Assembly: GCA_001724025.1 (NCBI GenBank)
Contig: MEDJ01000009.1
Coordinates: forward strand, 306,762 to 370,761
DNA length: 64,000 nt
Source of the DNA: Acidobacteria bacterium SCN 69-37
GTDB taxonomy: Bacteria; Acidobacteriota; Vicinamibacteria; Vicinamibacterales; SCN-69-37
Reading direction: 5' to 3'
Shown here: in pieces, positions 60,518 to 61,589 of the stretch
Layout: every line of letters starts with the position of its first letter
Position numbering within the stretch: the stretch's first letter is position 1
The notes under the pieces: generated by a model
What the model saw: the letters and a program-made list of their open reading frames with translations, nothing else
Database searches by the model: none
Told to the model about the DNA's origin: nothing
Program-made: the position numbers and the translations under genes

Positions 60518-61573
60518 CTATTTGATCCCGTCCGCGAGCAGCCCCACGGCGAGCGCGTACGAATGCGAGCAGTTGTAATCGAGCAGTGCGAAGTAATTGC
60601 GATAGACGAGGAACGACCGGCGCTCGCCGCGGACGAGCGACGCCTCCATATCGGCGCGCGGCAGCGCGTCGCCGCCGACGAGCCGCACGCCGAGGCGGCT
60701 CCACTCGGCCAGCGGCCGAGCCTCCGTCATCAGCCTGATGGCGCGGCAGCCTTCGGTCCGCATCGGGACCGCCCGATCCACGGCCGCCAGGACGCTGGAC
60801 GACACCGCCACTTCGCGGCCCCAGCGCTCACCCTCCACCCACCCGGCGTTCTTCAGATAGTGGCCCATCGACCCGAAGACGTCGGGCAGCGACGTCCAGA
60901 TGTCCGTGGCGCCGTCGCGATCGAAGTCCACCGCGTGCCGCAGGAAGCTCGACGGCATGAACTGGGGCTGGCCCATGGCCCCGGCCCACGATCCCTTCAT
61001 CAGCTCGAGCGGCACGCCTTGATCGATCATGCGGAGCGCGGCGAGCAGTTCCGTCCGGAACAGCGCGCGCCTGTTGTCCCAGGCCAGCGTGGCCAGGGCG
61101 CGGACGGTCGGATACGTGCCGGTGAAGCGGCCGAAGTTCGACTCGAGCCCCCAGACAGCCGTCAGCACGCCAGCCGGCACGCCGTACTGGCTCGCAACAC
61201 CGGCCAGCAGTTGCGCGTGTCGCGCGTGCATCTGCCTGGCTGTCGTCCGTGTGCGCGTCGTGAGACGCTGGCGGAGATAGGTATCGAGGCTCTGGACGAT
61301 TTCCGGCTGGTTGCGGTCGCGCGAGACGACGACCGGTTCGGGCGTGAGCCCTGCGAACGCGAGGTCGAGCGTCGCCGGGGTGATGCCGGCATCGAGCGCG
61401 TCCTGACGCACATCCGCAAGGAACGCGTCGAACGTGGGCTGTGGGGAGGAAGCGGAGTCCTGCGAGGCGCTGATCGTCGTGACGGCCACGGCGATCAGGA
61501 CACACACGGCAATGCGATGACGCATGCCGTTCACTCTACACGAGGCTGAGAGGCGCGTAGGGAGGCGACGCAT
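60518..61573 (-). CDS. mltB: Lytic murein transglycosylase (MltB family)
   Basis: Contains ES.FG, GAMGQPQFMPSSF and DFD.DG..D.W motifs. Start is either ATG 61573 (GGGAGG SD, inside the palindrome) or ATG 61525 (giving a better signal peptide, MRHRIAVCVLIAVAV). Confidence 0.85.
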   Translation of the reverse strand: MRRLPTRLSASCRVNGMRHRIAVCVLIAVAVTTISASQDSASSPQPTFDAFLADVRQDALDAGITPATLDLAFAGLTPEPVVVSRDRNQPEIVQSLDTYLRQRLTTRTRTTARQMHARHAQLLAGVASQYGVPAGVLTAVWGLESNFGRFTGTYPTVRALATLAWDNRRALFRTELLAALRMIDQGVPLELMKGSWAGAMGQPQFMPSSFLRHAVDFDRDGATDIWTSLPDVFGSMGHYLKNAGWVEGERWGREVAVSSSVLAAVDRAVPMRTEGCRAIRLMTEARPLAEWSRLGVRLVGGDALPRADMEASLVRGERRSFLVYRNYFALLDYNCSHSYALAVGLLADGIK

Positions 61574-61589
61574 GCGTCGCCTCCCTACG
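61556..61589. repeat. Perfect 34-nt palindrome CGTAGGGAGGCGACGCA|TGCGTCGCCTCCCTACG (family E, copy 2)
   Basis: Self-complementarity checked. Same core as copy 1 (GCGACGCATGCGTCGC flanked by CGTAGGG/CCCTACG). Lies between the rplQ stop and mltB. Confidence 0.95.

Follow-up and report, generated by a model that had tools for sequence, protein, structure and literature searches.

A palindrome between rplQ and mltB of an uncultured acidobacterium as a likely double-foot GTAG REP

Described REPs of the GTAG type

The TnpA_REP/RAYT proteins are transposases of the HUH-plus-tyrosine type with the motifs NH[IFV]H, WQ and YIxNNP, and their genes are typically flanked or invaded by REPs. Among them, Quentin, Siguier, Chandler and Fichant (2018; PMC6006769) described the 'double-foot' REPs of subclass 2.4, defined there by a 5' GT[AG]G at the foot of a hairpin, three G-C pairs at its bottom and a 3' C[TC]AC. 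A REP inside the transposase gene, after the HUH motif, is given by these authors as the hallmark of the subclass, and the hosts that they name are Cyanobacteria, Bacteroidetes and 'various phyla'.

Di Nocera, De Gregorio and Rocco (2013; PMC3733652) numbered 24 families of GTAG REPs, including the SMAGs of S. maltophilia. According to their account, these elements lie mostly just 3' of ORFs, between tandem or convergent genes, and they often supply the TAG stop codon of a gene. Where a REP appears at a predicted N-terminus the start has often been mis-called, and shorter homologues reveal the true one. The truB gene is listed as a recurrent target. In E. coli, as reported for REP325 (bioRxiv 10.64898/2026.03.23.713779), the transcript upstream of a REP that separates tandem genes is stabilised, and the transcript downstream of it is attenuated.

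The two palindromes and their family

We analysed a stretch of DNA of 64 kb (the window) from an uncultured Vicinamibacterales-like acidobacterium, which contains two related palindromes.

61556 to 61589, either strand: copy 2, a double-foot GTAG REP palindrome, recognised from its sequence and RNA hairpin
23328 to 23357, either strand: copy 1, the canonical REP GTAGGGGCGACGCATGCGTCGCCCCTAC, recognised from its sequence and a hairpin of -26.2 kcal/mol

Copy 2 is made of two arms of 17 nt, CGTAGGGAGGCGACGCA and TGCGTCGCCTCCCTACG, which are 100% complementary and follow each other with no spacer, and copy 1 of the 15-nt arms CGTAGGGGCGACGCA and TGCGTCGCCCCTACG, also 100% complementary. The sole difference between them is an AG in the left arm of copy 2 and a CT in its right arm. 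The original prediction had described a perfect palindrome of 34 nt, a symmetric AG/CT insertion as all that separates the two copies, and an identical TAG-GGAGG-ATG reading on either strand, and the sequences agree with it on each point. The GTAG feet of copy 2 are at 61557-61560 on the plus strand and at 61588-61585 on the minus strand, the second of these being the 3' reverse-complement foot CTAC at 61585-61588. The stem is GC-rich, with a GGG...CCC bottom directly after the foot and a central GCATGC, and, the foot not counted, has 12 pairs in copy 2 against 10 in copy 1. The loop of copy 2 is 2 nt (AT), and RNA prediction gives an apical loop of 4 nt. As RNA, the 34-mer folds with -30.7 kcal/mol, compared with -9.9 +/- 2.3 kcal/mol for shuffled sequences (z = -9.0).

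A search of the window with the half-site GTAGGGN{0,4}GCGACGC returned four matches, the two palindromes on two strands each, against 0.03 expected, and the 24-nt core returned one match against 0.00 expected, so that a chance origin of the pair is excluded. Degenerate searches found no copies beyond these two in the window and none in about 8 kb of additional contig. No Rfam covariance model reached its gathering score anywhere in the window (0 families), and the exact sequence, searched in full-text literature, matched unrelated primers only. A sequencing or assembly artefact was ruled out, the element being present in independent short-read and long-read assemblies with unrelated flanks.

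Many phyla are represented among the at least 119 genome stretches in which the half-site GTAG-GGGCGACGC-(AT)-GCGTCGCCC was found, frequently with a CTAC end. The hosts among the matches listed include Gemmatimonadales, Binatia, Anaerolineae, Planctomycetota, Pseudomonadales, Obscuribacterales, Acidobacteriota and others. Since the scan of the genome collection required only GTAGGG, GCGACGC and GCGTCGC, neither the CC that follows in 131 of the 139 distinct elements among the matches listed nor the AT loop present in 75 of them was part of the pattern. Within the same 139 elements, 28 are double-foot and 10 stand in inverted pairs 20-150 nt apart. Several copies per genome occur elsewhere (for example L030, L107, L120 and three loci of OZ242340.1).

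A gene resembling TnpA_REP was found in seven of the 119 stretches listed, 845 kb in total, by means of a loose motif regular expression and then an HMM built from its matches (hmmsearch E values of 1e-41 to 1e-83). The best NCBIfam match of these genes is NF047646, 'REP-associated tyrosine transposase', with two of them above the cut-off, and their profile matches PDB 4ER8, the E. coli TnpA_REP, with E = 9e-20; one RAYT-like protein used as a single-sequence query against PDB sequences gave no match. Their P[ND]HxH, WQ and YIxxNP motifs are those given for subclass 2.4. In five of the seven (L054, L074, L012, L091 and L120) a REP lies within the gene, after the HUH motif, and in L120 there are REPs on both flanks as well. 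The REP sequence is enriched beside and inside TnpA_REP/RAYT transposase genes of other genomes.

The palindromes resemble the REPs of subclass 2.4, or RAYT group 4, as defined in PMC6006769, in the GTAG foot, the three G-C bottom pairs and the CTAC end, and also in a patchy, multi-phylum distribution beside or inside subclass-2.4-like tnpA_REP genes elsewhere. They differ from them in that no cognate transposase was seen in the window, where hmmsearch found no TnpA_REP gene and the copies number just two in 64 kb, in the host, a Vicinamibacterales-like acidobacterium, and in the symmetric AG/CT insertion of copy 2, found nowhere else in the searches; the double-foot variant with AG/CT was absent from the three matches of a metagenome scan for 2-nt-insertion variants. 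It may be that copy 2 no longer propagates actively and is a relic, either decaying or remodelled on the spot. With the GTAG superfamily as set out in PMC3733652 the palindromes share the GTAG tag, a GC stem within 6-13 bp, a loop of 2-3 nt, a site just past ORFs between tandem genes, and termini that give TAG stops, whereas most of the families described there carry one unpaired GTAG tag and here both ends are tagged and paired. The palindrome most likely belongs to an already described kind of bacterial repeat. The original prediction had taken an orientation-independent cassette of this kind to be undescribed, but the GTAG 'double-foot' REP is known from PMC6006769, and PMC3733652 records that GTAG REPs donate TAG stops and give rise to false N-termini.

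We consider it likely that the palindrome is a copy of a double-foot REP of the GTAG superfamily, which would form a hairpin on the rplQ transcript while MltB is translated from position 61525, copy 1 having been co-opted. The double-foot form (5' GTAG, a GC stem on three G-C pairs, a minimal loop and 3' CTAC), associated with TnpA_REP subclass 2.4 (RAYT group 4) HUH tyrosine transposases, would account for each part of the apparent cassette. The stop-like TAG would come from the GTAG foot, the SD-like G-run from the GGG at the bottom of the stem, lengthened in copy 2 by the local symmetric AG/CT insertion, and the ATG from the AT loop closed by G-C; since there is a foot at each end, both strands give one and the same reading. 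TAG, GGAGG and ATG are in this sense by-products of the repeat family and no adaptation to mltB.

Copy 1 at the truB junction

Copy 1 joins two genes of the plus strand.

22346 to 23332, plus strand: DHH/DHHA1 phosphoesterase gene (NrnA-like), which ends at the TAG of the REP foot
23342 to 24244, plus strand: truB, which starts at the central ATG of copy 1

The stop codon of the DHH/DHHA1 gene is the TAG of copy 1 (23330-23332), and this TAG and the ATG of the element, being in one frame, are used as stop and start, so that copy 1 has the feature of a coupling junction, its own TAG ending the upstream gene and its own ATG starting the downstream gene. The right arm encodes MRRPY, and about six residues of the TruB N-terminus are REP-derived. 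At the place of the ancestral truB start, which in relatives opens M-T/D/N-G-V-L-L, positions 23360-23362 have become ATC, and therefore the ATG of copy 1 is the only canonical start for truB. A relative with 98% identical TruB shares the REP with the window, but syntenic relatives at 72-94% identity do not have it, a pattern that we take as an indirect sign of turnover of the element. In adding translated residues to TruB with the gene intact, copy 1 resembles the Rickettsia palindromic elements (RPEs) as presented in PMC3733652, although RPEs, at about 100-150 bp, exceed it in length and lack a GTAG foot, and here the REP-derived part amounts to a few N-terminal residues.

With its TAG ending the DHH gene and its ATG starting truB, copy 1 would be co-opted more deeply than copy 2. 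Because a ribosome terminating at the TAG would already have melted the stem, initiation of truB at copy 1 is probably coupled to upstream translation.

A more far-reaching possibility is that double-foot REPs became, by exaptation in this lineage, modules of gene junctions. At the DHH-gene/truB junction the element would stand in place of the native spacer and start codon, truB would be translated only from the ATG at the tip of the -26 kcal/mol hairpin, and a ribosome terminating on the element's own TAG would open this hairpin, making it a strict termination-reinitiation gate. At rplQ/mltB, the second copy could yield a minor, N-terminally extended MltB or could tie mltB to read-through from the ribosomal operon. 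Taken as a whole, we regard this combination as unlikely.

Copy 2 between rplQ and mltB

For the likely double-foot REP at 61556-61589, which we prefer to see as a hairpin on the rplQ transcript, the surrounding features on the minus strand are the following.

61603 to 62187, minus strand: rplQ, ribosomal protein L17 (Pfam Ribosomal_L17, E = 7.5e-33)
61590 to 61602, minus strand: G-rich spacer of 13 nt, GGGGGGCGGGGGC as read on this strand, between the rplQ stop and the palindrome
61526 to 61573, minus strand: in-frame extension of 48 nt, MRRLPTRLSASCRVNG, from the central ATG of the palindrome, publicly called (351 aa) and absent from homologues and syntenic relatives
61532 to 61540, minus strand: TGTAGAGTG, a motif found conserved on alignment with relatives, which precedes the ATG at 61525 by 6-14 nt
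60518 to 61525, minus strand: gene of an MltB-like lytic transglycosylase from its most likely start (Pfam SLT_2, E = 7.8e-92; homologue N-termini; conserved upstream block)

Copy 2 is extragenic, with the tandem genes rplQ and mltB on either side. The rplQ gene closes the rpsM-rpsK-rpoA-rplQ cluster and stops at a TAA (61605-61603, minus strand); the original prediction correctly placed the element 14 nt after this stop, 13 nt (61602-61590) intervening. No gene ends at the TAG of copy 2, in contrast to that of copy 1.

On the minus strand the ATG at 61573 does open, as had been predicted, a long ORF (60518 to 61573, 351 aa) that continues in frame into the SLT_2/MltB-like domain. From the comparison with homologues, however, mltB almost certainly starts 48 bases beyond this ATG, at 61525. 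The ATG at 61525-61523 gives a product beginning MRHRIAVCVLIAVAVTTISASQD, in the form of a Sec signal peptide, and the N-termini of MltB homologues (M-x-H-R...) correspond to this Met, the 94%-identical homologue starting with MRHRVAV. Three syntenic relatives, L121 (MltB 94% identity), L122 and L123, are without the palindrome, have other hairpins after rplQ, and keep about 45 nt upstream of the ATG equivalent to 61525. The TGTAGAGTG motif is part of this conserved block and might serve as a -10-like element or as some other 5' signal. Because homologues start at 61525 and the syntenic relatives are without the palindrome, the ATG at 61573 is probably a gene-caller artefact, and the extension of 48 nt probably goes untranslated. 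The claim that the 61573 ATG with its GGGAGG is the mltB start is contradicted by these alignments, including the comparison of mltB 5' ends in relatives that had been put forward as a check, and it is the fallback of the original prediction, an rplQ hairpin with MltB starting at 61525, that the evidence favours.

The palindrome could instead be an orientation-independent stop-SD-ATG cassette, the GGGAGG and the 61573 ATG driving MltB with a 16-residue extension or coupling it to rplQ. The ORF is open in frame from 61573 and was chosen as the start by public gene calling, a GGGAGG precedes that ATG by 6 nt, copy 1 genuinely uses its TAG and ATG, which share a frame, as stop and start, and a Gemmatimonadales locus (L061) has the same layout of TAG stop and ATG ORF as copy 1. 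Against this, besides the N-termini that align to Met-61525 and the closest relatives that have neither element nor extension, the stop of rplQ is not the TAG and the AG variant puts TAG and ATG out of frame. The SD and the ATG are, moreover, inside the stem of -30.7 kcal/mol, which starts 13 nt past the stop codon and would for this reason be out of reach of a terminating ribosome. Shine-Dalgarno (SD) sites of GGAGG strength are not the norm in this genome, where SD sequences are weak and several genes have none. For the 139 family members among the matches listed, the TAG and ATG showed no excess in frame with long ORFs (TAG, 32 versus 27 and 34; ATG, 21 versus 19 and 16; both, 8 versus 6 and 6), in tests that are crude in using raw ORFs in GC-rich DNA. 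We therefore think the cassette improbable.

What remains is the hairpin itself. An intrinsic terminator consists of a GC-rich hairpin followed at once by a U-tract. Like Rho-independent terminators, copy 2 is a GC-rich hairpin right after the last gene of an operon, but it is a dispersed cross-phylum repeat, a U-tract is absent on both strands (the minus strand continues CGCCUCUCAGCC and the plus strand GCCCCCGCCCCCC), and consensus scans for intrinsic terminators and sigma-70 promoters around the site made no call at the palindrome. Termination, if any, is therefore not of the classical intrinsic type. In the predicted RNA fold the 13-nt spacer pairs with bases on the 3' side of the palindrome and thereby lengthens the stem. 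Copy 2 most likely acts as an rplQ 3'-UTR hairpin. It had been proposed as a terminator hairpin, a coupling device or both; the rplQ 3' hairpin stands, while the lack of a U-tract or terminator call goes against an intrinsic terminator, and the TAA stop of rplQ and the start of MltB homologues at 61525 go against a coupling device.

In the preferred reading of copy 2 as a REP, the rplQ transcript would form a very stable stem-loop 13 nt beyond the stop codon, which by analogy with E. coli REPs would shield the rplQ mRNA at its 3' end and dampen read-through into mltB, and MltB would be translated from the ATG at 61525. As in REP325, for which upstream protection and attenuation of read-through are proposed, tandem genes are separated by a stable hairpin that has no U-tract. 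REP325, however, is an array of 12 units and copy 2 a single hairpin, and the REP type differs, E. coli TnpA_REP belonging to subclass 2.2. The role of stabiliser or attenuator is thus extrapolated from E. coli.

It might also be argued that the hairpin is a terminator or RNA-stability element of the rplQ operon that evolved locally, without any mobile REP, and that the likeness elsewhere is convergence. The relatives too carry strong hairpins right after the operon's last gene, two of them trailed by a U-rich run (UUGUCUUUUC). Consensus scans called no terminators at these U-rich hairpins, just as none was called at copy 2, where the U-tract is absent. Copy 1 and elements of many phyla are identical to the palindrome over 15 nt per arm, which cannot be convergence, the link to TnpA_REP genes speaks for a mobile repeat, and we hold a local origin to be very improbable. 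As the palindrome in this lineage fills the spacer where the relatives hold other hairpins, it probably arrived, or replaced an older hairpin, recently.

A palindromic operator for a dimeric DNA-binding protein co-regulating the truB and mltB regions, suggested by a perfect dyad without spacer at two 5' gene ends in the window, was rejected as scarcely credible, because the insertion of 2 nt per half keeps the pairing and shifts the half-site spacing by 4 bp, which indicates a constraint on the hairpin rather than on dimer binding, and the same sequence turns up across many phyla, both within transposase genes and in unrelated surroundings, while relatives of the same gene order have no palindrome.

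The understanding of how REPs work is unchanged by these findings, and their practical value lies mainly in annotation. Because double-foot GTAG REPs give an SD-like G-run and then an ATG on both strands, gene callers are drawn to false starts, as in the public call of MltB with 351 aa instead of about 335, and N-termini such as MRRPY or MRRLP are a tell-tale sign. The double-foot type of REP is shown here in an uncultured Vicinamibacterales-like acidobacterium, where hairpin repeats turn over rapidly within one conserved spacer, and where truB is a clean example of a REP donating a stop and a start codon after loss of the ancestral ATG. If the unlikely exaptation as gene-junction modules were real and had recurred in the family, inserting a REP would be a general means by which translational coupling is rewired.

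Anatomy and family of the palindrome

The two related palindromes of the window are:

61556-61589: copy 2, CGTAGGGAGGCGACGCA-TGCGTCGCCTCCCTACG
23328-23357: copy 1, CGTAGGGGCGACGCA-TGCGTCGCCCCTACG

Copy 2 is a perfect palindrome of two 17-nt arms without a spacer, as the original prediction had it, and direct comparison with copy 1, the sole related sequence in the window, bore out the symmetric difference also described there, an AG in the left arm of copy 2 mirrored by a complementary CT in the right. In the window the half-site GTAGGGN{0,4}GCGACGC has four matches, each palindrome counting once per strand, where shuffled sequence gives 0.03; looser searches of the window and of about 8 kb more of the contig added no copy to these two. 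Folded as RNA, the 34 nt give a stem of 15 pairs at -30.7 kcal/mol (shuffles: -9.9 +/- 2.3), and a flanking G-run lengthens this stem when copy 2 is folded in 126 nt of context. The window has a G+C content of 69%, and the contig comes from a bioreactor metagenome, from a Vicinamibacterales-like acidobacterium.

Genomes, one per species, were scanned with a pattern fixing only GTAGGG, GCGACGC and GCGTCGC, which matched at least 119 genome stretches. Hosts among the matches listed were Gemmatimonadales, Binatia, Anaerolineae and other Chloroflexota, Planctomycetota, Pseudomonadales, Obscuribacterales, Armatimonadota, Thermoleophilia and Acidobacteriota, including a Luteitalea MAG. These matches gave at least 139 distinct elements. 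Two features not demanded by the pattern recurred among the 139 elements listed: a CC continuation completing a GGG/CCC stem bottom (131 elements) and an AT loop (75). A CCCTAC ending made 28 of the 139 perfect palindromes like copy 1, and 10 inverted pairs lay 20-150 nt apart, as in REPINs. Because the flanks are unrelated, the conserved unit is only a hairpin of about 24-28 nt. Copy 2 is thus a hairpin of the repetitive extragenic palindrome (REP) family.

The window element and its relatives match in full the REPs of TnpA_REP subclass 2.4 in Quentin et al. 2018 (PMC6006769). As set out there, this subclass (RAYT group 4; motifs NH[IFV]H, WQ and YIxNNP) is patchily distributed over multiple phyla, and its REPs are either of a canonical long type, with three G-C pairs at the bottom of the stem, or of a "double-foot" type with 5' GT[AG]G and 3' C[TC]AC. 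Because the palindrome's anatomy matches published REP classes, the "stop-SD-ATG" reading reflects the repeat's intrinsic sequence: the TAG is the foot, the G-run the stem bottom, the ATG the AT loop with its closing G, and the two-strand symmetry the double foot. The observation itself is real; a novel cassette at copy 2 is not supported. The element belongs to a described class (PMC6006769, PMC3733652).

An HUH/Tyr transposase gene was present in 7 of the 119 stretches listed (845 kb in total). The best family for these proteins was the NCBIfam "REP-associated tyrosine transposase", two being above the curated cut-off; some matched Pfam Y1_Tnp weakly. Their profile matches E. coli TnpA_REP (PDB 4ER8, E = 9e-20) and they carry the motifs P[ND]HxH, WQ and YIxxNP. 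In five of the seven the coding sequence includes the palindrome, just past the HUH strand, where it is read as VGATHASPL. The TnpA_REP-like genes with a REP inside, in frame, after the HUH motif are, by locus:

L054 5767-6330
L074 3004-3651
L012 1041-1946
L091 978-1724
L120 5497-6234

Hosts of such genes, with the REP or variants inside (one insert reads RATHRVAPT), include Anaerolineae, Gemmatimonadales and other MAGs. L091 and L120 carry two or three REP inserts each, and in L120 REPs also stand on both sides of the transposase gene. A REP inside the transposase gene is a published hallmark of subclass 2.4 and not new. A profile search found no TnpA_REP gene in the 64-kb window, which holds two GTAG REP copies.

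A metagenome scan for variants with any 2-nt insertion in each arm gave three matches, none with AG/CT, so copy 2 would seem to be a local variant. The mirrored insertion is consistent with pairing being maintained, and might have arisen by hairpin-templated correction or from an inverted dimer, the origin suggested for double-foot REPs by Quentin et al. 2018 (PMC6006769). An operator for a duplex-binding protein was rejected, the mirrored AG/CT insertion being inconsistent with such a site.

Copy 2 and the start of mltB

Copy 2 separates the minus-strand cluster rpsM-rpsK-rpoA-rplQ from the next gene on that strand, which encodes an SLT_2 (MltB-like) lytic transglycosylase and is convergent with MacB/FtsX-type permease genes. 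The sites concerned are:

61605-61603, minus strand: rplQ stop codon TAA, 13 nt before the palindrome
61573, minus strand: the palindrome's central ATG
61525, minus strand: second ATG

The ATG at 61573 does open a long ORF (351 aa) in frame with the SLT_2 domain, and the public gene call (locus L001, 10615-11670 = window 60518-61573) starts there; orthologues are called at 334-339 aa. The product from 61525 begins MRHRIAVCVLIAVAVTTISASQD... and has, as predicted, the form of a signal peptide and no SD. Nearly all of the best 60 MltB homologues start at the equivalent of Met-61525, many with an M-x-H-R opening, and a 94%-identical protein starts MRHRVAV. In three syntenic rplQ-SLT_2-FtsX loci from relatives the palindrome is absent (0/3), and a different strong hairpin follows rplQ directly in each, succeeded in two of the three by UUGUCUUUUC, where a simple consensus scanner called no terminator. 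About 45 nt directly upstream of the 61525-equivalent ATG are kept in all three, including TGTAGAGTG / TGTAGTGA. Since relatives without the palindrome keep this proximal block and homologues start at Met-61525, the 16-codon extension is found only where the palindrome is present. The proposed comparison of mltB 5' ends thus speaks against translation from the palindrome's ATG, and the 351-aa call probably has the wrong start because the REP's SD-like run misled the gene caller. Where a REP coincides with a predicted N-terminus, shorter homologues often reveal that the true start lies further downstream (PMC3733652).

Among 26 gene starts surveyed on the contig, SD motifs were only weak or partial, and absent from several genes, so the missing SD at 61525 is unremarkable; the palindrome's GGGAGG is atypically strong for this contig. 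Within the conserved block (about 61526-61570), TGTAGAGTG at 61532-61540 on the minus strand is kept although the relatives' adjacent hairpins differ completely. With its end 7 nt before the 61525 ATG, TAGAGT might serve as the -10 box of an mltB mRNA that is leaderless or nearly so. Three codons ahead of this ATG, an in-frame GTG is likewise conserved.

Most GTAG REPs closely follow the 3' end of an ORF and separate tandem or convergent genes (Di Nocera et al. 2013, PMC3733652), and E. coli REPs between tandem genes stabilise the upstream transcript and attenuate the downstream one (bioRxiv 10.64898/2026.03.23.713779). Arguing from sequence and these E. coli precedents, as for all our functional statements, copy 2 would be transcribed with rplQ as a stem starting 13 nt past the stop codon, which would block 3' exonucleases and stabilise the ribosomal-operon mRNA. 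The stem would also attenuate read-through into mltB, short of a classical terminator: the predicted rplQ terminator hairpin fails in its classical form, with no U-tract at copy 2 and no intrinsic terminator called by the consensus scan. In that case a signal within the conserved 45-nt block would account for part of mltB expression. Poor initiation is expected at 61573, because SD-like run and ATG lie inside the stem, which a ribosome that terminates on the TAA of rplQ would probably not reach.

Other hairpin repeats

A second hairpin repeat, CGGAG-CCCYGRGGC-TTCA-GCCYCRGGG, outnumbers the GTAG REP in the window, with nine copies:

copies 1-5: 7422-7448, 7472-7498, 27521-27547, 27581-27607, 28919-28945
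copies 6-9: 48414-48440, 50209-50235, 50288-50314, 55686-55712

Its stem shows compensatory changes (CCCCGAGGC/GCCTCGGGG versus CCCTGGGGC/GCCCCAGGG), and several copies are arranged as inverted pairs at a distance of 50-80 nt. The repeat's 5' CGGA is similar to the "CnGA foot" of the repeats that flank class 3 TnpA_Y1 genes in Acidobacteria and Planctomycetes (Quentin 2018, PMC6006769). A third family has the core CAGGCTGGAAGG / CCTTCCAGCCTG:

window: 60452-60517; 15121-15132, 37661-37672, 37796-37807, 52692-52703
syntenic relatives: L121 about 2905-2975; L122 and L123 about 2885-2930

The occurrence at 60452-60517, a perfect inverted repeat of 26 nt, lies where the mltB-like and FtsX-type genes converge. 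The relatives' rplQ-mltB spacer holds third-family members where the window holds the GTAG REP; different hairpin repeats thus replace each other in one slot. A long AT-rich imperfect palindrome at 63338-63471 (69-nt arms, 84% complementary, GAAGT-like units), without an Rfam match, fills the 275-nt gap rpsK-rpoA. No rpsD (S4) lies between these genes on the contig or in relatives.

Copy 1 at truB and the cassette reading

The stop/start idea, which is not supported at copy 2, holds at copy 1:

23330-23332: TAG, stop codon of the DHH/DHHA1 gene, inside the 5' arm
23342: ATG in the same frame, 9 nt downstream, start of truB

TruB homologues share the N-terminus M-[T/D/N]-G-[V/I/L]-L-L-[I/L]-D-K-P. 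Two relatives (68-72% identity) lack the palindrome at this junction and have a 17-26-nt spacer followed by ATG-ACC/GAC-GGC; the window codon aligned with their truB ATG is ATC. As the REP's ATG is the only canonical start between the DHH stop codon and the conserved TruB motif, it is very probably the functional truB start, and MRRPY is very probably REP-encoded. A relative with 98% identical TruB (L127, 663-690) keeps copy 1, but one CGC of the stem is CAC there (MRHPY, His for Arg) with no compensating change; a stem that is partly coding is thus not strictly maintained. A ribosome terminating at the TAG would already have melted the stem holding the truB ATG, which makes termination-reinitiation coupling plausible. 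Such co-option is of a kind already reported for GTAG REPs, truB being a recurrent target (PMC3733652).

Raw ORFs in the 119 stretches listed, a crude measure in GC-rich DNA, showed no excess of TAG or ATG in frame with long ORFs: of 167 oriented matches, 32 had the TAG as the stop of an upstream ORF of 100 codons or more (27 and 34 in two shifted frames), in 21 of 95 the central ATG opened an ORF of that length (19 and 16), and both applied in 8 (6 and 6). One of the eight, a double-foot REP of an uncultured Gemmatimonadales (L061 6335-6362), is a second stop/start look-alike with the same start ambiguity as at mltB: a 696-aa ORF stops on its TAG, and the 532-aa ORF on its other side, which encodes a multi-pass membrane protein, opens with MRRPYG... 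and has another Met 17 residues further in. "MRRPY" N-termini may flag REP-induced mis-annotation. These results have some value in this annotation caveat and in truB as an example of a REP donating both a stop and a start codon.
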